From Candidatus Heimdallarchaeum aukensis (lineage in GTDB: Archaea > Asgardarchaeota > Heimdallarchaeia > Heimdallarchaeales > Heimdallarchaeaceae): DNA of 64,000 nt. The translations under genes were made by a program, and so were the position numbers. Every line of letters begins with the position of its first letter. The stretch's first letter is position 1. The DNA lies in the NCBI GenBank assembly GCA_021513695.1, contig CP084166.1, positions 800,001 to 864,000 of the forward strand, read 5' to 3'. Shown here one piece after another: positions 1 through 7,683 of the stretch. The notes below the pieces were generated by a model. That model made no database searches. It saw nothing but the letters and a program-made list of their open reading frames with translations, and was not told the origin of the DNA.

Positions 1-327
1 TATTGCTTTTTTTGATAAGCCTGAAAAAGTGCACTCATAAGGAGGAAGAAGTTCATTCTCATTAACTAATCCAAAACCTGCAGAAATAATGTAATAATCA
101 ACTTCAGCTTTTGACGAAAGAATCTTAACAGCTTTTTTTATTGCAAGAGCTTGTCCACCTATGTATAATTCTCCTGCTTCTCTTAATAATGAAGAAAATT
201 TTTCTTTTGCACTTTCTCTTTGATCTTTTGTTTCTAGGTCCTTACATGTTGGTTGATCATCATGTTGTACAGACTTTTTCTTTCCACAAGAGTTAATAAC
301 AAGTATTGAAGGTTTCAGAGATCTCAC
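1..327 (-). CDS. Hypothetical protein, partial (the C-terminal part of this gene lies beyond the window start); reading frame is open from a GTG/TTG start near 327 to the window edge
   Basis: Uninterrupted 109-codon minus-strand frame in stop-rich AT DNA, bounded upstream by TAG at 328-330. Sits 6 bp downstream of the 334..753 gene on the same strand. Translation reads ...LVINSCGKKK...YIGGQALAIKKAV...SAGFGLV... with no family recognised. Confidence 0.35.
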   Translation of the reverse strand, partial: MRSLKPSILVINSCGKKKSVQHDDQPTCKDLETKDQRESAKEKFSSLLREAGELYIGGQALAIKKAVKILSSKAEVDYYIISAGFGLVNENELLPPYECTFSGLSKKAI

Positions 328-333
328 CTAAAG

Positions 334-753
334 CTATTCAGTATCCTTTTTTGCCAAATATCGATTATAAAATCTTTTAATTTTCTTTTTTTCGAGATCA
401 AAATCTAGATCTTTACTATTTTTGCCTTCTTGCCTTTCCATTTTATTGAGTTTACTTTGAATTTTGCTTAGTTTTAGAGCAAGCATTGAATTTCTTCTAA
501 AAAGTTCACTGTTTTCAAAAAACAAAACCCCATATGCTTTTCTAAGTTTACTATACTTTATTGTTAATTCATTATATCGTTCTCTTAATTCTTCAAGATT
601 CTTAAGTAGACTAACCTCATCAATTTGTAAATCCTCGCTGTTTAATGCCAGAAAATCATAATAATCAAGGAGTGTGTTAATTATATCATCAGTATATTCA
701 GTAACATCTTCAAAAATAGCAGGAATCTTGACATTAGTGATCATTTTCTTCAT
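334..753 (-). CDS. Hypothetical coiled-coil protein (139 aa)
   Basis: ORF with a heptad-rich K/E/L C-terminal half. Its start overlaps the stop of the upstream gene by 4 nt, indicating an operon. Confidence 0.5.
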   Translation of the reverse strand: MKKMITNVKIPAIFEDVTEYTDDIINTLLDYYDFLALNSEDLQIDEVSLLKNLEELRERYNELTIKYSKLRKAYGVLFFENSELFRRNSMLALKLSKIQSKLNKMERQEGKNSKDLDFDLEKKKIKRFYNRYLAKKDTE

Positions 754-1106
754 TTTGCTACACCTTTTAGAATACCATCTAACTTCTCTTCAAGTTCAGT
801 AATAACATTATAATCTTCATTATATTCTTTCTTCATTTGTTTTTCTTCTTCTATACTTTTTTTCAATTTTTCAATTTCTTTTTCTCTTTCTGGAATTTTC
901 TCCAAAAGAGCCTTATATTCTAGTATATACTCCACAAATGCCCAAGAAAGCTTTTTTTCTTTGTTATATTCTGTAAGAAACTTAAAAAATTGGTTTACTT
1001 TTTCTATTATTGTTTCAGATTTTTCCTTTCTCTCTTCAGCGATTCTAGCAATTTTTCGCTGAATTCTTGAGGAAAAAGAAATCTTTACTTTCTCTTGTTT
1101 TTTCAT
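750..1106 (-). CDS. Ribbon-helix-helix (CopG/Arc-like) domain protein with coiled-coil tail (118 aa)
   Basis: N-terminus KVKISFSSRIQRKIARIAEERKEKSETIIE fits the beta-strand plus two-helix RHH pattern. The C-terminal half is a charged coiled coil. Confidence 0.45.
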   Translation of the reverse strand: MKKQEKVKISFSSRIQRKIARIAEERKEKSETIIEKVNQFFKFLTEYNKEKKLSWAFVEYILEYKALLEKIPEREKEIEKLKKSIEEEKQMKKEYNEDYNVITELEEKLDGILKGVAK

Positions 1107-1246
1107 TTACAACTTTTTTTTCAGCTTGCTGTTTTAAAAGTTTATTAAGTTTAACTCAAAATCAGATTTTTCAAAACTTTTTTCTTTTACTTCCATCATT
1201 TTTTTTAAATCAAATAACTTTAATAGCTCTAATTCAAAGTTAAATT

Positions 1247-1576
1247 ATGGAAGAAATAAGTGTCAAGGAGTATTTAGAAAAATCAGGACAATTACTAGAA
1301 AAATATAGATTTAATATTGAAAATCTTCGACATCAGAGAAAACAAATAGAACAGAAATTTTTCCTCCCTCACGAGATGGTTGACTTTTTTCATACAAATA
1401 AAAGCGAATACAAAGTTTGGTTAAAAATTCAAGACATGATTCTCACACTTGAAGATGCTTATGCAGACCTAGTTGGGAGTATGATGGAAGCAAAAGCTAA
1501 CCCTGATAATTATAATTATTATTTAGAAGACAAACGTATTACAATTATGCAACTAAAAGAAACTGAAGAAGAATAA
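1247..1576 (+). CDS. Hypothetical protein (109 aa)
   Basis: ORF only; no recognisable motif. Confidence 0.4.
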   Translation: MEEISVKEYLEKSGQLLEKYRFNIENLRHQRKQIEQKFFLPHEMVDFFHTNKSEYKVWLKIQDMILTLEDAYADLVGSMMEAKANPDNYNYYLEDKRITIMQLKETEEE

Positions 1577-1681
1577 AGAAATAAGTGATAAAGAAAAGAA
1601 ATTAAATTAACAATTTTAAAAAGTAAATTCACTGTTTTTCTAATAAGATTTATTTAGGGTGTTTGAATAATATAATATTTG

Positions 1682-3265
1682 ATGAGATTTGTTTTATTTT
1701 CTGATACCCATATTGGTGGAAGATATGATGAAATGATATTGATGAAAGGTATAGATTTTATTAATAACATTGATGGAGATATTTTTATTCACTGTGGAGA
1801 TTTAACTGGTTCTGGCACTTTGGCTGAATATGAGATTGCTAGACTTTATTTAGAAAAAATCAAGAAAAGGCCTTTTTTCATTGTTCCTGGAAATCATGAC
1901 TGCAAAAATGTGGGTGATTTACTTTTTGAAGAAATAGTTGGTGAGCGTTTTTGGGTAAAGACATTCGAAAAAAAGAAAACTCGGATTCTTGGTCTTGACT
2001 CTACTGAACCCGATGCAAATACTGGAAGAATGGGTCCTAAATCAATAAAAAGAATTTATGAAGAATTTGAGGATTTACCAGAATATTGGTTAAAAGTTTT
2101 AGTTTTTCATCATCAGACTTTACCAATTCCCTATACTGGTAGAGAAAGAAGTGCAATCAAAGATGCAGGAGATGTAGTGAAAGCTATTCTTGATTGTAAC
2201 ATTCATCTTGTTTTCAATGGTCATAGGCACATTTCTAATGTCTATAAGATGTCTGATGGAGTAGTAAATGCTTGGATTATTAATGTTGGTACATTATCTT
2301 GTAAAAAAACTAGATATAGAGAAGAGTATAGCTTAACTGTCGTTGATGCTTCTTTAAAGAAAAACAACCTTGCTATTCGTAGTATACTACTTAAGAAAGA
2401 GCCTATCAGAGAAGTTGTAAAATATTCTGGTAAATTCCAACGTTTTATTGCCCCTATGAATAAGAAACACATAGCAACAATAATTCAAATAGGCAATACA
2501 GCTTTTTCTAATTCACGATTTAGGATGGGTAATTTCTACAAAGGTCTCGAAACAATTAATCTCATCCCTTGTGATGTAGTTGTCCATTGTGGAGAAGTTA
2601 CAGGTGCCTCCTATGTCAATGAGTTTCAAAGAGCAAAGGCTTTATTATCTCAAATAGAAAAACCTCTTATTGTTGTTCCAGGAGATAATGATGCTTTTCC
2701 ACTTGGTTGGGATTTGTTTCCTGAGTACATTGGTGATCCTAACCCCTATTTTGAGAATGAGCATTTGATTGTTAAAGGGTTCAATACTTGCTTAATTGAC
2801 GAACAAGAGGGAAGACTCGGAAGAGGAAATATGAAAGAGATGATAACAACATTTGAGAATAAATCAAAAATAGGAGTAGTAGCTTTTCATCATTCAATAA
2901 TGCCTTTACCTCACTCTAAACATGATGCAGAGCTAATAGATGCAGGAGATGTTCTTGCTGCCATAGTAAACCACAGAATCAATCTCGTTTTAACTGGAGC
3001 TAAAAATAGAAGCGGGTGTTGGCAAGTTAACGACACTGTATTTGTAAATGCTGGAACACTCAGCTCTGAAAATATTACTACAAGAGACGGAAATAGTTTC
3101 AACATAATAACCATTAGCCAAACAGATATAGGTAAACTTTACGAGGTCGATGAGTATTTTGTTGAAACAAACGAAAGAAAAACTATTGGAGTTTTCCATA
3201 TTTCTGATAGGGGGATACCTATTCTCATTCCTGATAGAAAGGTTCCCAACACCATTCATTTATGA
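1682..3265 (+). CDS. Tandem calcineurin-like metallophosphoesterase; the second module is degenerate
   Basis: First half carries the full MPP motif set: FSDTHIG (DxH), HCGDLTG (GD), GNHD, HHQT, GHRH. Second half has VVHCGEVTG, PGDNDAF, FHHSIMP and TGAKNRS, so the last His motif is lost. The ORF track starts at TTG 1679; ATG at 1682 is more likely. Confidence 0.8.
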   Translation: MRFVLFSDTHIGGRYDEMILMKGIDFINNIDGDIFIHCGDLTGSGTLAEYEIARLYLEKIKKRPFFIVPGNHDCKNVGDLLFEEIVGERFWVKTFEKKKTRILGLDSTEPDANTGRMGPKSIKRIYEEFEDLPEYWLKVLVFHHQTLPIPYTGRERSAIKDAGDVVKAILDCNIHLVFNGHRHISNVYKMSDGVVNAWIINVGTLSCKKTRYREEYSLTVVDASLKKNNLAIRSILLKKEPIREVVKYSGKFQRFIAPMNKKHIATIIQIGNTAFSNSRFRMGNFYKGLETINLIPCDVVVHCGEVTGASYVNEFQRAKALLSQIEKPLIVVPGDNDAFPLGWDLFPEYIGDPNPYFENEHLIVKGFNTCLIDEQEGRLGRGNMKEMITTFENKSKIGVVAFHHSIMPLPHSKHDAELIDAGDVLAAIVNHRINLVLTGAKNRSGCWQVNDTVFVNAGTLSSENITTRDGNSFNIITISQTDIGKLYEVDEYFVETNERKTIGVFHISDRGIPILIPDRKVPNTIHL

Positions 3266-3343
3266 TATAACTTAGATATTTAACTAGTTATATCGATAGA
3301 TATTGTAAAAAAATTTAAATCTAAATAATGAAGTGTACACCTT

Positions 3344-4627
3344 ATGCACAAAGAGGTAAAAAATTCAAAAAACGTTTCTTTTCCAGTTGTAATAAAAAAT
3401 TTAGATGAGAGAATGAATAAATGGTTGAAAGAAGCACAGAAACGTATATTTAGTATTGCTGCAGGAGATAGGATTTCATTCATAGCTTCTGCCATAGCAC
3501 AAGTTGGTTTTGGCAAAATCCTCTATGCTGCAAATGAACTTGGGGTTGATATTGAAAAAACCAAACCATACATTTTTTTTGCTCCTGACGGAACTTGCTC
3601 ATACAACGAAATTAGAATAAAAAGAGGTTTTACATATGGTTGTATATTCAAAGCAGATTTCGAGGGACTGATTGGTACTAATAACTCAATGCCAAACGGT
3701 TGTGGATATAGCTTATATGAACTTAAAGATTGGAACGATGATGAAACTCTAATCAGAACTTTAAACCAAATAAAGCAAAATATAACAGAAGAACAAGCAA
3801 AAGAACTAGGAAAAGGCAATCATTTTATTGCTGTTTACAAGGTTTTAGACGCTATATCAGGAGAAGATACAGAAAGGAGAATGGTATTACTTCATTGTAG
3901 TGGGCATGATTTAAGCAAAAAACCACTTTATTTCTTCAACTGGTTAGAAGAAACAGATGGATGTCATAAAGTACAAACACCACATGGAGAAATTTACCTT
4001 TTAGAAAGTGAGGCAAAAAAGAGATATATCAAAGAATTTGAGAAACTTGACAAACACAATAAAGAAGCTCGTGTCACTGTCATGAAAGAGTTGTTTAGAG
4101 ACTCTTCCTATGAATTAATTTCAAGTATCACTCACCAAGGGTTATATAATAACGGTTCATATCATTTTTTGGGAATACAAAAAAGCGAAAAACTTATTCC
4201 TATAGCTTTCAATGCAGATGAAGGAGGAATTGCTGTCAAGACAAAGAAGAATCTGTCAGGACAATTTATAGATCAATGGAAACAAGGAACAAGAGTGAAA
4301 GATTTAGGATATGAAAGAGAATTTAAAGAGCTCAACTTTACTCCACACGGAGGAGGATACGAATTCAAATACCCAATCAAACGTTTTGTTATATTCTTAA
4401 ATGATCAAGGACTGGATCACTTCTCGGTTGAATTAAAAAAGCCGAAAGAGCCAAGTATTAAACTTATTGCTTCCTATTTCAAACCTATTAGAGAATACAT
4501 GACATATAGGAGAAAGTTACCAGTAATGAAAGAAGTCTTTAAAGCGGAGCTAGCAAACCACATTTATGATCTTGTTCCATTTATGCAATTACATCCTAAA
4601 GTTAGTATTCCTGGAGGACATTACTAA
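3344..4627 (+). CDS. Divergent RtcB-family RNA ligase paralog (427 aa)
   Basis: Carries the hallmark RtcB active-site motifs in order: MPNGCGYS (Cys ligand), GKGNHFIAV (GSGNHF motif), HCSGHD (H-x-SG) and TPHGGGYEF (HGAGR-like nucleophile His region). Otherwise strongly diverged and shorter than canonical RtcB. Confidence 0.6.
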   Translation: MHKEVKNSKNVSFPVVIKNLDERMNKWLKEAQKRIFSIAAGDRISFIASAIAQVGFGKILYAANELGVDIEKTKPYIFFAPDGTCSYNEIRIKRGFTYGCIFKADFEGLIGTNNSMPNGCGYSLYELKDWNDDETLIRTLNQIKQNITEEQAKELGKGNHFIAVYKVLDAISGEDTERRMVLLHCSGHDLSKKPLYFFNWLEETDGCHKVQTPHGEIYLLESEAKKRYIKEFEKLDKHNKEARVTVMKELFRDSSYELISSITHQGLYNNGSYHFLGIQKSEKLIPIAFNADEGGIAVKTKKNLSGQFIDQWKQGTRVKDLGYEREFKELNFTPHGGGYEFKYPIKRFVIFLNDQGLDHFSVELKKPKEPSIKLIASYFKPIREYMTYRRKLPVMKEVFKAELANHIYDLVPFMQLHPKVSIPGGHY

Positions 4628-4651
4628 TCAAGATTTAACCAAAGTGATAAT

Positions 4652-5395
4652 ATGCATTCTAACCCTTACATTATAGCTCATCGGGGTTTTTCTTCTAAAT
4701 ACCCCGAAAATACTATTCTAGCGATTAACAGGTCAGTAGGAATAGCAGATATTGTTGAATTTGATGTTCAACTTACAAAAGATAGGTATGTAGTTTTATT
4801 TCATGATGAAACAACAAAAAGGATTTTCCCAGAAATCGAGGAGAAGAGAATCCAAGACTTATATTATCATGAACTAAAAGAATTAAATGCTGGTAAATGG
4901 TTTTCATCAAAAATAGAAAAACAAACTATTCCCAAACTCGAGGAAGTAGTAGAAAAGATAAACAACAAAATCTCAATGATTATTGAATTAAAGAACAAGG
5001 GAAATAAAGAAAAAAAAGAAGAACTAGCTACTATAGTATTGAATATCCTAGATGACAACAATGTCTCTTTAAACAAAGGGTATCTTTCAGTTCGAGACTT
5101 AGAAATGCTTGAAATTATTAACTCTCTTTCTTCAAAATACAGAATTGGATTAATGCAGAAAACGAGAACACCGGAAGAATTTATAGAACTAGTTAAAAGT
5201 AACAATCTTGAATTTGCTCAAATAAGATGGAAGAATTGGACTGAGAGTAATTGGCAAGAACTTTTGTCTTTAGAAACTAAAATTACTGCTTTTTATGCTG
5301 ATGAAGAAAAAGAATACAATTTTTTAATTGAAAAACAAGTTTATGGAATTTTCACTAATTTTCCAGATAGATTAAGAAAACTGCTGAACATGTAG
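4652..5395 (+). CDS. Glycerophosphodiester phosphodiesterase (GDPD family)
   Basis: N-terminal IIAHRGFSSKYPENT ... EFDVQLTKD ... FHDETT signature of the GDPD/UgpQ family. Confidence 0.75.
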   Translation: MHSNPYIIAHRGFSSKYPENTILAINRSVGIADIVEFDVQLTKDRYVVLFHDETTKRIFPEIEEKRIQDLYYHELKELNAGKWFSSKIEKQTIPKLEEVVEKINNKISMIIELKNKGNKEKKEELATIVLNILDDNNVSLNKGYLSVRDLEMLEIINSLSSKYRIGLMQKTRTPEEFIELVKSNNLEFAQIRWKNWTESNWQELLSLETKITAFYADEEKEYNFLIEKQVYGIFTNFPDRLRKLLNM

Positions 5396-5403
5396 AATTT
5401 AAT

Positions 5404-6147
5404 TTATTGAGGTTTCTTTCCTACAGTCGCTGCATAAATTACAAATTGATCTTTTCCATTAATGTTTAACAATTTATTTAGTTCATCATCATGAAAAGCT
5501 CCTATAGCACATGTTCCACAATCTATATTTTCAGAAGCAAGATAGAGATTCTGACAAACATGTCCCGCATCTAAGAATAGATATCTATACCCTCTTTCTC
5601 CATATCTCCAGGCCATACGGTAAGGAACAGCAACCCAAAAGAATGTTACAGCACTTCTTTTTACAGTACTTTGGTTATAAGATGCTTTTGTAAACTTTTC
5701 TGCTAGATTTTTTGAATTATCAATAGGCATCAGACTATGTTTAGAAGCAATATATCTATAGAGACCTGGTTCTATGTTGTCTACATTATTAATTAACAAG
5801 AAAGTTTCAAAAGCATGCCTAGCTCCTGCTGAAGGAACAGTTCTGAGAGTATAAGCTTGTCTCATAAATTCTTTTATTCCTTGAGAAGACCAGAGTAGCC
5901 AGCTTAACTCTAGTAAGCTTATTGGATCAGGAGCATATTTTCTTAAAGATCTTCTGTTTGTGATGCACTCTTTTAAAGAAACTTGAGGAATATTACTAAA
6001 ATCTCTACTCAATTCAATTAATTCTGCATTTTCGTCCCATGGGAGCTCTAAAGGGGGAGAGGGAGCTCCTTTACCTTGATCACTTCGAGAAAGATACTTA
6101 TACTTAGTTTTTTCAATAAACTCTTTTCCAATATTTTTGTATGTCAT
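5404..6147 (-). CDS. SagB-type nitroreductase-family dehydrogenase
   Basis: RRSLRKY motif plus C-terminal nitroreductase-like core (GARHAFETF..., FLDAGHVCQNLYL...). Stand-alone gene. Confidence 0.55.
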   Translation of the reverse strand: MTYKNIGKEFIEKTKYKYLSRSDQGKGAPSPPLELPWDENAELIELSRDFSNIPQVSLKECITNRRSLRKYAPDPISLLELSWLLWSSQGIKEFMRQAYTLRTVPSAGARHAFETFLLINNVDNIEPGLYRYIASKHSLMPIDNSKNLAEKFTKASYNQSTVKRSAVTFFWVAVPYRMAWRYGERGYRYLFLDAGHVCQNLYLASENIDCGTCAIGAFHDDELNKLLNINGKDQFVIYAATVGKKPQ

Positions 6148-6242: not shown

Positions 6243-6788
6243 GTGATACAGAGGAACTACAAAATAATACTTATTGGAAATGCTCTTGTTGGAAAAACTG
6301 CTATTGTAACACGTTTTGCTAAAGATTACTTTGAACAGAACTATTTGAGAACGCTAGGAATCAATTACTACATAAAGACACAAGTAATTACTAATGTAGA
6401 AGTAAAGATGATTATTACAGACACCGCAGGACAAGAAGCGTTTCAACGCCTAAGAAGTTCGTATTACAAGGGGGCAAGAGGAGCAATAATTGTTTATGCA
6501 ATAAATGACAGACATAGCTTTGGACAAGTTGATTATTGGAAGAATGAAATGTTCAAGACTTTAAAAGAAATCCCAATAATAATTGTCGGAAATAAAATTG
6601 ACTTAATCGATCAAAGAAGAATATCAACAAGTGAAGGACGCTTGTTAGCGAAAAAATTGGGTTGTTTATTTATTGAATCATCTGCTAAAACAGGAGAAAA
6701 TATTGATAAAATCTTTGAAATGATAGTTAAAGATATACTAAGAAAAGATAATTTAATAACAGAAGAAAAAGAAGAAAGTTCTACTTAA
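6243..6788 (+). CDS. Rab/Ras-family small GTPase (eukaryote-like), GTG start
   Basis: G1 GNALVGKT, G3 DTAGQE, RabF-like YYKGARG, G4 GNKIDL, G5 ESSAKTG. Confidence 0.8.
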   Translation: MIQRNYKIILIGNALVGKTAIVTRFAKDYFEQNYLRTLGINYYIKTQVITNVEVKMIITDTAGQEAFQRLRSSYYKGARGAIIVYAINDRHSFGQVDYWKNEMFKTLKEIPIIIVGNKIDLIDQRRISTSEGRLLAKKLGCLFIESSAKTGENIDKIFEMIVKDILRKDNLITEEKEESST

Positions 6789-6918: not shown

Positions 6919-7683
6919 ATGCTAGAAAGAGTTTTTTTTATTTATTACCAGTATATCTTTTTATCTTTAGGTATAGTAACTTTTTTTCTATTACTTAGAA
7001 TTACAGCTCCTTATGGGAAACATTTTTCAGAAAAATTTGGTCCTTCAATTAAAGGTTCTTGGGCTTGGTTGATTATGGAATCACCAGCAGCAATTACGAC
7101 TACGATTCTATTCTTACTTTCGCTAAAAGAACTATCACTAGTTCCTGTGCTTTTGGTTTGCATTTTTTGTATTCACTACTACCCTAGAGATTTTATTTAC
7201 CCTTTTTGGGCTAGAAGAGAAGCAAAAACACCTTTGATTATTATGTTCTCTGCTATATTCTTTAATATTAGCAATGCTTATCTTCAGACTAGATGGTTAC
7301 TCAAATTCGCTCCTGAAGATAAGTATACTATTAGTTGGCTTTATAGTCCCCAATTTATTGTTGGAAGTTTACTATTTATTTTAGGATTTATATTTAATCG
7401 AAAAGCTGAATTCTCATTAAGAAAACTAAGAAAGAAAGGAGAAAGTAGTTACAAAATACCCTATGGGGGAATGTTTGAGCTTATATCTTGTCCTAACTAC
7501 TTCTTTGAAATTATTGAATGGATAGGTTGGGCAATAATAACTTGGTCAATTCCAGGGCTTGTATTTATGATTTGGACTATAGCTAATCTTGGCCCAAGAG
7601 CAGTTAGCACGCATAACTGGTATAAAAATAACTTTCCAAATTATCCAAAATCAAGAAAAGCTCTTATTCCATTTGTTTTTTGA
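6919..7683 (+). CDS. 3-oxo-5-alpha-steroid 4-dehydrogenase / polyprenol reductase family membrane protein (SRD5A-like)
   Basis: C-terminus GGMFELISCPNYFFEIIEWIGWAI...WYKNNFPNYPKSRKALIPFVF matches the SRD5A C-terminal domain closely. N-terminal TAPYGKH motif also present. Multi-TM. Confidence 0.8.
   Translation: MLERVFFIYYQYIFLSLGIVTFFLLLRITAPYGKHFSEKFGPSIKGSWAWLIMESPAAITTTILFLLSLKELSLVPVLLVCIFCIHYYPRDFIYPFWARREAKTPLIIMFSAIFFNISNAYLQTRWLLKFAPEDKYTISWLYSPQFIVGSLLFILGFIFNRKAEFSLRKLRKKGESSYKIPYGGMFELISCPNYFFEIIEWIGWAIITWSIPGLVFMIWTIANLGPRAVSTHNWYKNNFPNYPKSRKALIPFVF

Follow-up and report, generated by a model that had tools for sequence, protein, structure and literature searches.

Analysis of the 64,000-nucleotide window revealed a three-gene module that is conserved in a core clade of Heimdallarchaeia and encodes a tandem metallophosphoesterase (MPP2), an RtcB-like protein (RtcBL) and a cytoplasmic, UgpQ-like GDPD phosphodiesterase. 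RtcBL is a new, unannotated branch of the RtcB superfamily, and the conserved linkage points to a new cut-and-rejoin chemistry, on RNA or on a glycerol-phosphate compound. All three genes lie on the forward strand. MPP2 (1682..3265; 527 aa, or 528 aa from an alternative TTG start at 1679) is separated from RtcBL (3344..4627; 427 aa) by an AT-rich spacer of 78 to 79 nt (3266..3343), in which no terminator-like site was found. A spacer of 24 nt (4628..4651) lies between RtcBL and the GDPD gene (4652..5395; 247 aa), and the module is probably co-transcribed. The ORF positions of the first-pass annotation were correct on re-check.

The 427-aa protein had been called a diverged RtcB ligase, a call that failure against RtcB models was to count against. 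RtcBL did fail these models: searches against Pfam, NCBIfam and PDB sequences gave no match, even with E values of 0.1 to 10 allowed. Membership of the superfamily was established by structure comparison and family profile instead. A Foldseek comparison matched RtcBL to human RTCB (E value of 3.6e-8), and the broad RtcBL family profile matched Pyrococcus RtcB (E value of 2.7e-5) in an alignment that pairs the NH motif, His234, His329 and the nucleophile His404. RtcBL thus has the RtcB fold and is a strongly diverged member of the superfamily. Its own superfamily comprises at least 249 unannotated clusters from archaea and bacteria; no homologs were found in phage or plasmid collections. The proposed separation from housekeeping RtcB held: RtcBL is a paralog-type family of its own. 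A canonical RtcB co-occurs with RtcBL, about 3 kb away, in four related loci.

Alignment of the Heimdall family (alignment A1) revealed the invariant RtcBL residues D82, N118, C120, G158-N159-H160-F161, H184 and H264-Q265 and the invariant stretch P334-H335-G336-x-G338-Y339-E340. N159/H160, H184, H264 and H335 align to Asn202/His203, His234, His329 and His404 of RtcB. In RtcB, His203, His234 and His329 are metal ligands, His404 is the nucleophile, and Asn202 touches the phosphate and the attacking hydroxyl (PMC9745838). Comparison with the RtcB family (Pfam PF01139; PhoRtcB PH1602, E. coli RtcB, human RTCB and Thermus TTHA1785) revealed that the NHF motif, His234, His329 and the HGxG nucleophile are in register in RtcBL. 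Both families have an invariant Cys, for which the RtcBL motif is xNxCG. The canonical "NR" motif is matched by a conserved Arg of RtcBL, and a Tyr-Arg/Lys motif is located near the C-terminus. Neither the nucleophile His nor the NTP-phosphate contacts vary across the RtcBL superfamily.

In other respects RtcBL is unlike RtcB. The identity is 10 to 14%, RtcBL is about 60 residues shorter, and its C-terminus is different. At the level of motifs, no Asp stands three residues upstream of Cys120, where RtcB DxxC has Asp95, and Pro117-Asn118 stand before the Cys instead; HGAGR is replaced by HGGGY-E. Two arginines of PhoRtcB, Arg238 and Arg190, hold the 5'-OH strand in a clamp (PMC8051266); the corresponding RtcBL positions, His188 and Ile147, are both variable across the superfamily. 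The position of the guanine-reading Glu206 is occupied by Gly or Ala in the Heimdall RtcBL clade. The median pI of the Heimdall RtcBL family is 5.9, compared to 8.9 for one canonical RtcB. Sequence comparison did not fix the N-terminal active-site register, in which Cys120 is a candidate counterpart of RtcB Cys98.

MPP2 matched Pfam Metallophos in two stretches (E value of 6.4e-19). In the N-terminal domain all five MPP motifs (DxH, GD, GNHD, H and GHxH) are kept in 14 orthologs, whereas the C-terminal domain is conserved but degenerate (GNT, G[DE], PGxxD, HH and GAKN). Among NCBIfam models, those that best matched the whole catalytic domain were SpdA (7.9e-11) and CpdA (2.2e-9), by family name cyclic-nucleotide phosphodiesterases, and the closest PDB sequence was the glycerophosphodiesterase GpdQ (4.2e-4); all these matches fall far below the family cut-offs. 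The N-terminal domain is thus predicted to be a catalytically complete CpdA/GpdQ/SpdA-like phosphodiesterase, not a Pnkp-like one. It shares the full motif set with the class-III metallophosphodiesterases GpdQ, CpdA, SpdA and Rv0805, from which MPP2 differs in being a fused tandem with a catalytically degenerate second domain. At least 184 MPP2 homologs were found in Asgard archaea and Bathyarchaeota, some of them without RtcBL (e.g., Loki locus L122), and ThiI adjoins one Loki homolog.

The third gene encodes a full-length GDPD domain (Pfam GDPD, E value of 7.2e-31; 27 PDB GDPD matches, the best at 3.1e-18). The residues of the HR, E/D, HD and E/K catalytic sets (H10, R11, E36, D38, H51, D52, E112 and K114) are near-invariant in 18 orthologs, as in UgpQ/GlpQ-type glycerophosphodiester phosphodiesterases (PF03009), and the characterised relatives found are all glycerophosphodiesterases or lysolipid phosphodiesterases. 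Unlike these enzymes, this GDPD is coupled in an operon to an RtcB-like gene; no published case of such coupling turned up in literature searches.

Of 26 loci compared in the core Heimdall clade, including that of the window, 19 have GDPD close by, 17 have MPP2 and 16 have the two together, which bears out the proposed evolutionary link between RtcBL and the tandem metallophosphoesterase. The linkage outlasts at least five rearrangements in proteins that are only 45 to 57% identical, and the genes occur in five or more different orders or orientations. The idea that this RtcB clade always neighbours a metallophosphoesterase gene did not survive, as two deep Heimdall clades (0/7), one core subclade and a same-genome paralog lack the linkage. 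GDPD had been treated as a bystander; it is in fact the tightest RtcBL partner. Where GDPD is present, it is no more than 361 bp away in 18 of 19 loci, and the two frames overlap in several orthologous loci. The upstream genes, taken by the first-pass annotation for an RHH regulator and a coiled-coil partner within the cassette, are outside the conserved module. ORF 750-1106 on the reverse strand, still a candidate RHH protein, had no RHH match in Pfam, NCBIfam or PDB; the AF2 model made from its single sequence consists of helices alone and has low confidence at the N-terminus. Its 139-aa neighbour gave weak coiled-coil-type matches only. Among the loci compared, both genes and a 109-aa ORF (1247-1576) occur elsewhere only in the closest relative (L008).

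Distant RtcBL relatives have other partners. An HD or an EndoIV-like phosphoesterase stands in there, and the MPP2-RtcBL pair recurs in a clade of about 25% identity with HD replacing GDPD. A phosphoesterase neighbour is present in only about 30% of the evaluable distant loci. TetR regulators adjoin 16 of 80 distant loci, and in an Altiarchaeales-like clade the tRNA m1A methyltransferase GCD14 is divergently adjacent to RtcBL. The ABC transporter adjoining one deep clade carries the tungstate-binding protein TupA, not PstS. In one distant member, RtcBL is joined to a kinase of the APH/choline-kinase type, and its cluster, which looks biosynthetic, also encodes two HydE/PylB-like radical SAM enzymes, an ATP-grasp enzyme, a HisC/CobD-like PLP enzyme, an SDR and HAD phosphatases.

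The reading that we tentatively favour, over RNA repair, is that the module cuts and rejoins phosphodiesters, in remodelling or salvage, on a glycerophosphodiester-type, non-polynucleotide substrate. We infer that RtcBL still runs RtcB chemistry. His335 would be nucleotidylated by an NTP, the NMP would be handed to a phosphomonoester to give an X-O-P-P-N intermediate, and attack by a hydroxyl would form a new phosphodiester and release NMP. GDPD and the N-terminal domain of MPP2 would split phosphodiesters by hydrolysis into an alcohol and a phosphomonoester. RtcBL would spend an NTP to attach this phosphomonoester to a different hydroxyl, and the degenerate MPP2 domain may bind or scaffold. 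The RtcB fold and catalytic register, the linkage that survived rearrangement, and the action of GpdQ and of the characterised GDPD relatives on glycerophosphodiesters or lysolipids are consistent with this reading. So are the poor conservation of the strand-clamping arginines, the Gly/Ala at the guanine-reading position, the acidic pI, the kinase fusion in its small-molecule-type cluster and the TetR neighbours. The lack of matches in phage and plasmid collections fits as well, as does the lack of RtcA, archease, Hen1, tRNA and Rfam elements near RtcBL. Formally, the cut-and-rejoin scheme resembles CDP-alcohol phosphotransferase or CobU/CobS chemistry, as a chemical precedent only; there, activation turns a phosphomonoester into an NDP-ester, and hydroxyl attack on this ester yields a phosphodiester. 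CobU, a fused kinase and guanylyltransferase with an enzyme-His-GMP intermediate, is echoed by the APH-RtcBL fusion, but RtcBL has no sequence or fold relationship to either system. Against the favoured reading, all characterised RtcB proteins act on polynucleotide ends, and we know of no RtcB-fold enzyme with a non-nucleic-acid substrate. The HD, EndoIV/CbiR-like TIM barrel and MPP partners come from families with a further role in healing nucleic-acid ends, GCD14, ThiI and the nearby canonical RtcB point the same way, and His188 could bind phosphate in the Arg238 position in the Heimdall clade. It would also take a remodelling rationale to explain why one operon encodes both hydrolases and a ligase for the same bond.

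An RNA (or DNA) end-processing and sealing cassette, in which RtcBL ligates or caps polynucleotide 3'-phosphate ends, is unlikely. The first-pass annotation had proposed an RNA repair module by analogy to bacterial Pnkp/Hen1; of this, the link between an RtcB-superfamily protein and a metallophosphoesterase stands, and both systems pair such an enzyme with a strand- or bond-joining one. The Pnkp analogy itself does not. In the bacterial system the Hen1 methyltransferase accompanies Pnkp, which carries a P-loop 5'-kinase, an MPP with 2',3'-phosphatase activity and an adenylyltransferase ligase that is ATP-dependent and requires 3'-OH and 5'-P ends. The best MPP2 matches are of another type, and the neighbourhood of the module lacks kinase, ATP-dependent ligase and Hen1 domains. 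RtcB chemistry wants the opposite polarity, as RtcB-type ligases join a 3'-phosphate or 2',3'-cyclic phosphate end to a 5'-OH end (PMC9745838, PMC8051266); a phosphatase that took off the 3'-phosphate would therefore ruin the substrate instead of healing it. The phosphoesterases of a sealing cassette would have to keep the 3'-phosphate and open 2',3'-cyclic phosphates, convert 5'-phosphate to 5'-OH or remove a blocking adduct. Such a cassette agrees with the retained fold and catalytic residues, with the action of all known RtcBs on nucleic acids (PMC9745838, PMC8051266), with the hydrolysis of 2',3'-cyclic nucleotides by SpdA-/CpdA-type enzymes (going by family names), with the repeated pairing of RtcBL with metal-dependent phosphoesterases of different folds, and with the tRNA-modifying neighbours. 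It is weakened by GDPD, the closest partner, which has no known nucleic-acid substrate, by the unconserved contacts to the 5'-OH strand, by the acidic pI and by the small-molecule-type cluster of the kinase-fused member. No RtcA, archease, Hen1, Ro, PrfH, kinase, tRNA or Rfam element was found near RtcBL, whose operon partners are phosphodiesterases. A separate cyclic phosphodiesterase would also not be needed, since RtcB itself opens cyclic phosphates (PMC3458531).

The same intrinsic 2',3'-cyclic phosphodiesterase step of RtcB (PMC3458531) would suit an improbable reading in which all three enzymes are hydrolytic and serve phosphate scavenging or nucleotide-signal turnover, RtcBL being only a (cyclic) phosphodiesterase or nucleotide-processing enzyme beside GDPD and MPP2. 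The substrates would include cyclic nucleotides, RNA breakdown products or deacylated lipids. GDPD and GpdQ/CpdA-type enzymes have a role in phosphate scavenging, and by family name they include members of phosphodiester catabolism. The invariant nucleophile and NTP-phosphate contacts argue for nucleotidyl transfer, not simple hydrolysis, and neither a phosphate transporter nor a Pho-type regulator is linked, TupA taking the place of PstS in the deep-clade transporter. Likewise improbable is a purely historical synteny of neighbours without a common pathway, with an unrelated role for RtcBL. The clades, subclade and paralog that lack the linkage, the MPP2 homologs without RtcBL and the low share of distant loci with a phosphoesterase would agree with it. 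Against it stand the linkage through repeated rearrangement of diverged proteins, the recurrence of the MPP2-RtcBL pair in a clade where HD replaces GDPD, and the overlap of the RtcBL and GDPD frames.

The open reading frames of MPP2, a tandem metallophosphoesterase (1679/1682-3265), RtcBL, an RtcB-like protein of 427 amino acids (3344-4627), and a GDPD protein of 247 amino acids (4652-5395), all on the plus strand, were found as described in the first-pass annotation. RtcBL had been called a divergent RtcB paralog there; its place in the RtcB superfamily was borne out by fold and profile comparison, but no curated RtcB HMM recognized it. Searches of RtcBL against Pfam and NCBIfam, including the PF01139 and RtcB models, gave no match at an E value of ≤0.1. 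Neither a phmmer search of the Protein Data Bank (PDB) with RtcBL nor a search with A1, a profile built from a 38-sequence Heimdall alignment, retrieved an RtcB at an E value of ≤10. The 88 homologs of RtcBL (27 to 93% identity) were nearly all labeled Heimdallarchaeia; none of them contained a Pfam domain, and one bears the NCBI name "RtcB family protein." The AF2 model of RtcBL, generated from the family alignment, reached a pLDDT of 90.3 and a pTM of 0.90. When this model was submitted to Foldseek, the sole significant matches were human RTCB chains (E values of 3.6e-8 to 2.3e-7, probability of 1.0), which places RtcBL in the RtcB superfamily at the level of the fold. Among characterized enzyme families, only RtcB was recovered with this fold, and to our knowledge, a single chemistry and a single class of substrate are known for the RtcB family.

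When 1.84 billion representatives were searched with a profile (E ≤ 1e-3), at least 249 related clusters at 50% identity were obtained; the members of this family come from Asgard archaea, from Altiarchaeales, and from bacteria, Myxococcota among them. Nine distant relatives of RtcBL were scanned against Pfam, and none had an RtcB match. A broad profile that includes distant members (A2) reached Pyrococcus RtcB (PhoRtcB) with an E value of 2.7e-5 and TTHA1785 with an E value of 5.9e-5; A2 was the only profile to reach PhoRtcB, and a homolog search based on it mainly recovered the Heimdall set once more. Alignment of the RtcBL family with the canonical archaeal RtcB of a distant metagenome locus (L047) by hhalign gave an E value of 4.6e-5 over 239 columns. 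These results indicate that RtcBL is a real, very divergent RtcB-superfamily protein whose family is distinct from PF01139. The family defined here is a sister family of RtcB that is undetected by Pfam and NCBIfam.

Comparison of the catalytic residues with those of PhoRtcB, for which the roles of Asn202, His203, His234, His329, and His404 and of the GTP contacts Glu206 and Lys480 have been described (PMC9745838), was based on HMMER and hhalign alignments. Invariant in the RtcBL family alignment were D82, N118, C120, GNHF158-161, H184, H264-Q265, and PHGxGYE334-340. H335 of PHGGGYE aligned with the nucleophile His404 of HGAGR, and N159 and H160 aligned with Asn202 and His203, H184 with His234, and H264 and Q265 with His329 and Asn330. 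In the 38-sequence superfamily alignment, H335 was invariant and N159 was present in 37 of 38 sequences, so that both the nucleophilic histidine and the Asn202 counterpart are retained. Of the M1 metal ligands (Cys98, His234, and His329), His234 and His329 have invariant counterparts in H184 and H264, and of the M2 metal ligands (Asp95, Cys98, and His203), His203 has one in H160. Invariant Cys120 is part of a PNGCG sequence similar to the DINCG of canonical RtcB, in an N-terminal part whose register is not reliably alignable; a forced global hhalign alignment for the Cys98/Asp95 register had zero confidence and was discarded. By motif register, Pro117 occupies the position of Asp95, and no Asp is found at the same motif position as in DINCG; invariant Asn118 or Asp82 might stand in for it.

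Other contacts differ. The GTP-specificity contacts Glu206 and Lys480 are not kept in RtcBL: of 38 Heimdall sequences, 34 carry Gly or Ala where guanine-reading Glu206 would be expected (H160 plus three residues), distant clades have Asp, Glu, or Asn there, and the C terminus of the Heimdall clade differs from that of canonical RtcB. The canonical HGAGR motif is replaced by HGGGY-E in RtcBL. In PhoRtcB, the 5'-OH strand is held by Arg238 and Arg190 (PMC8051266). The Arg238 position corresponds to His188 (His in 34 of 38 Heimdall sequences, variable elsewhere) and the Arg190 position to unconserved Ile147, and both positions vary over the superfamily. The median pI of the Heimdall RtcBL family is 5.9, compared with 8.9 for a single comparison protein, the canonical RtcB of L047. 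Together, these data indicate that RtcBL has kept the RtcB fold and, by alignment, its nucleotidyl-transfer core, whereas the family has lost the contacts to the RNA 5'-OH strand.

MPP2 (528 amino acids) contains two Metallophos (PF00149) stretches, with a Pfam E value of 6.4e-19. Its best full-domain NCBIfam matches were the 2',3'-cNMP phosphodiesterase SpdA (7.9e-11) and CpdA (2.2e-9), all far below the family cutoffs, and its nearest relative among solved structures by sequence was the glycerophosphodiesterase GpdQ (E value of 4.2e-4). In 14 orthologs, the DxH, GD, GNHD, H, and GHxH motifs of the N-terminal domain were invariant; the C-terminal domain of the same orthologs carries GNT, G[DE], PGxxD, HH, and GAKN, and its motifs I, III, and V fail. 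From the motif pattern of the two halves, MPP2 is predicted to combine, in one chain, an active MPP domain with a pseudo-MPP domain that is conserved. At least 184 MPP2 homologs were found in Heimdall, Loki, and Bathyarchaeota genomes, and the family is broader than its association with RtcBL. On one Promethearchaeota (Loki) contig (L122:465-3351), a tandem-MPP homolog with 38% identity to the window protein lies directly upstream of ThiI and ThiS, and no RtcB-like gene was present in the 8 kb downstream of it. ThiI carries a THUMP domain and belongs to a family that produces 4-thiouridine in tRNA. The GDPD open reading frame is full length (PF03009; Pfam E value of 7.2e-31) and had 27 GDPD matches in the PDB, the best at 3.1e-18; its catalytic His/Arg, Glu/Asp, His/Asp, and Glu/Lys residues were near-invariant in 18 orthologs.

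The synteny analysis covered the window, 28 loci from species-representative genomes, and further retrieved loci. Among the 26 loci of the core Heimdall clade, GDPD was located within 10 kb of the RtcB-like gene in 19, MPP2 in 17, and both in 16, and the exceptions include three contigs that end at or beside the RtcB-like gene. GDPD lay at most 361 bp from RtcBL in 18 of 19 loci, often with overlapping frames. The observed arrangements were MPP2>RtcBL>GDPD; RtcBL>GDPD>x>MPP2; RtcBL> <GDPD MPP2>; <MPP2 <GDPD RtcBL>; and RtcBL>GDPD> <MPP2. Because both order and strand vary, the linkage has outlived repeated rearrangement. MPP2, RtcBL, and GDPD thus constitute a conserved module, to which no fourth co-conserved gene could be added from the Heimdall loci compared. 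The synteny of the RtcB-like and MPP genes, which the first-pass annotation proposed to test, holds in most of the core clade but not in all relatives: the linkage was missing in two deep Heimdall clades (0 of 7), in a core subclade (L020, L021, L024, and L025), and at a second paralog (L002) whose genome also has a linked copy (L001). In one of the deep clades (L004:5395-7846; also L026, L027, and L028), the RtcB-like gene comes immediately after an ABC transporter; the binding protein of this transporter matches the tungstate-binding TupA (E value of 5e-57) and not PstS; a link to phosphate uptake was dropped for this reason.

The neighborhood of distant superfamily members was examined in 80 metagenome loci (L039 to L118) from a clade whose RtcB-like proteins share ~25% identity with that of the window. 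At a distance of up to 1.5 kb from the gene, 22 of these loci had an HD-domain phosphohydrolase, 22 a DksA/TraR zinc-finger protein, 16 a TetR regulator, 3 MPP2, and 2 GDPD (examples of such neighbors are L075:9550-10047, L100:8815-9456, and L086:2320-3015); of the 46 loci that extend 1 kb or more to either side, 14 had a phosphoesterase at this distance. The DksA/TraR C4 zinc-finger protein usually adjoins the gene directly. One locus (L049) contains, in order, HTH, MPP2, HD, and RtcBL genes, with HD in the slot that GDPD has in Heimdall, and in a soil-bacterial locus, RtcBL is followed by a 463-amino-acid HD protein. In Altiarchaeales-like loci (L121:5232-8112, L037:8001-10002, and L036:671-2637), RtcBL has a divergently oriented GCD14-type tRNA m1A methyltransferase gene upstream and, downstream, a gene for an EndoIV/CbiR-like AP_endonuc_2 TIM-barrel protein, whose best matches were deoxyribonuclease IV and the cobamide-remodeling phosphodiesterase CbiR, all below the cutoff. 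In one relative, P0118 (743 amino acids; L038:8001-10232), an APH/choline-kinase-type kinase is fused to the N terminus of the RtcB-like part. The cluster around this fusion (L038:3518-11751) encodes two HydE/PylB-like radical SAM enzymes, an ATP-grasp protein, a HisC/CobD-like PLP enzyme, an SDR, and two HAD phosphatases and is biosynthetic-looking. Association with phosphoesterases recurs across the family and involves four different folds; a link to a small-molecule-type kinase was seen once. Four related metagenome loci (L044, L046, L047, and L048) have a canonical full-length RtcB ~3 kb from the RtcB-like gene (e.g., L047:5741-7198, minus strand), which indicates that the two families occur side by side in the same genome and that neither replaces the other.

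The module had been likened to bacterial Pnkp/Hen1 repair, in which an MPP-type phosphatase heals RNA ends before ligation. This tempting analogy is chemically inverted and is corrected here. The Pnkp/Hen1 system combines a P-loop polynucleotide kinase, an adenylyltransferase ligase, and Hen1 with an MPP, whereas Pfam and NCBIfam scans of all open reading frames in 1-8.7 kb of the window revealed no kinase, adenylyltransferase ligase, or Hen1 methyltransferase. Unlike Pnkp, MPP2 has its best full-domain matches among the diesterase-type CpdA, SpdA, and GpdQ. Furthermore, the ends that an RtcB-type enzyme seals must carry a 3'-phosphate or cyclic phosphate on one side and a 5'-OH on the other, and a 3'-phosphatase would therefore work against sealing. 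The RtcBA and archease-assisted RtcB systems, which have an adjacent RtcA, RtcR, or archease, also differ from the module, since no RtcA cyclase, RtcR, or archease was found in the window region or in the recurrent neighbor clusters of 33 Heimdall and 80 distant loci.

Our preferred reading, held tentatively and at somewhat less than even probability, is that the genes encode a cut-and-rejoin module for phosphodiesters whose substrate is of the glycerophosphodiester type and not a polynucleotide. It is proposed because no partner is more tightly linked than GDPD, the MPP has GpdQ as its closest solved relative, the arginines for the 5'-OH strand are missing, the family has an acidic pI, and TetR neighbors and a kinase fusion occur among distant members. 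RtcBL is inferred to form a His-NMP adduct still and to activate a phosphomonoester. A more specific version is possible but rather doubtful: RtcBL may represent a new branch of the RtcB superfamily that has given up polynucleotide ligation and uses the enzyme-His-NMP/X-pp-N mechanism to make phosphodiesters on small molecules or on the head groups of lipids. RtcBL would then activate, e.g., glycerol phosphate, and together with GDPD and the GpdQ-like MPP, it would form a Heimdall head-group or solute remodeling operon. RNA or DNA end-processing, in a corrected form, is a serious rival, if on balance an unlikely one; nucleic acids are the substrate of all known RtcBs, and the HD, MPP, and EndoIV-type partners represent classic end-healing folds. 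Judged by its motifs, the module has two catalytically intact phosphodiesterases and one degenerate MPP domain, beside the retained nucleotidyl-transfer core. A purely hydrolytic scavenging role is improbable. Non-functional synteny, set against a linkage kept through changes of order and strand, is improbable to a similar degree, and both rank below the cut-and-rejoin and end-processing readings.

What is new is a family within the RtcB superfamily with new, conserved operon partners, and literature searches found no paper that deals with the RtcBL family or with a pairing of RtcB and GDPD. The family could prove to be a new nucleic-acid end-processing system or the first non-nucleic-acid use of RtcB chemistry, and it would be of value in both cases. 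If RtcBL does make phosphodiesters on small-molecule or head-group acceptors, it would provide a route to them independent of CDP-alcohol transferases. Heimdallarchaeia are the archaeal lineage closest to eukaryotes. The Heimdall operon offers a compact, directly testable three-protein system and not an answer to a long-standing question.

Analysis of the module's surroundings revealed three small open reading frames (334-753, minus strand; 750-1106, minus strand; 1247-1576, plus strand) encoding lysine/glutamate-rich, likely helical proteins of 109 to 139 amino acids. The 4-bp overlap of 334-753 and 750-1106 suggests an operon. Among the loci compared, homologs of all three occurred only in the closest relative, "Candidatus Heimdallarchaeum endolithica" (L008), and the 109-, 118-, and 139-amino-acid proteins were rejected as module members on this basis. 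The 118-amino-acid protein (750-1106), previously proposed to be an RHH regulator, and its 139-amino-acid neighbor had weak coiled-coil-type matches only in Pfam and NCBIfam. No RHH match to the former was found in these databases at an E value of ≤0.1, and a search of PDB sequences with its N-terminal 55 residues retrieved no RHH structure. Its single-sequence AF2 model, with an unreliable coil at residues 1 to 12 (pLDDT of about 45 to 56) and predicted helices at residues 13 to 25 and 30 to 51, is compatible with an RHH fold but does not show one.

The window has a G+C content of ~30%, and a promoter/terminator scan was uninformative, the model being sigma-70 and the host an AT-rich archaeon. 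Searches for tRNA genes found none in the window and none in 27 Heimdall loci, and Rfam gave no match in the window. A mobile-element or defense setting was rejected because a tblastn search with a bacterial family member retrieved nothing from plasmid and phage collections. The sampled remainder of the window was ordinary housekeeping. The closest relative, strain PR6 (complete genome CP084167, L008), has an RtcBL protein 94% identical to that of the window and shares nine genes with it in identical order. Convergent with GDPD is a SagB-type nitroreductase/dehydrogenase gene (5404-6147, minus strand; TIGR03605 E value of 3.7e-40), which is conserved beside the module only in this relative; no YcaO or cyclodehydratase was present among the adjacent open reading frames scanned. 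Just downstream of the module lie genes for a Ras-family small GTPase (6243-6788, plus strand; Pfam E value of 6.7e-53) and a steroid-5-alpha-reductase/polyprenol-reductase-like membrane protein (6919-7683, plus strand; E value of 2.7e-55). A Steroid_dh/DUF1295-type gene was also located within 10 kb of the RtcB-like genes in L002 and L034, and L002 has DegV in addition. These neighbors give a weak hint of a lipid context.
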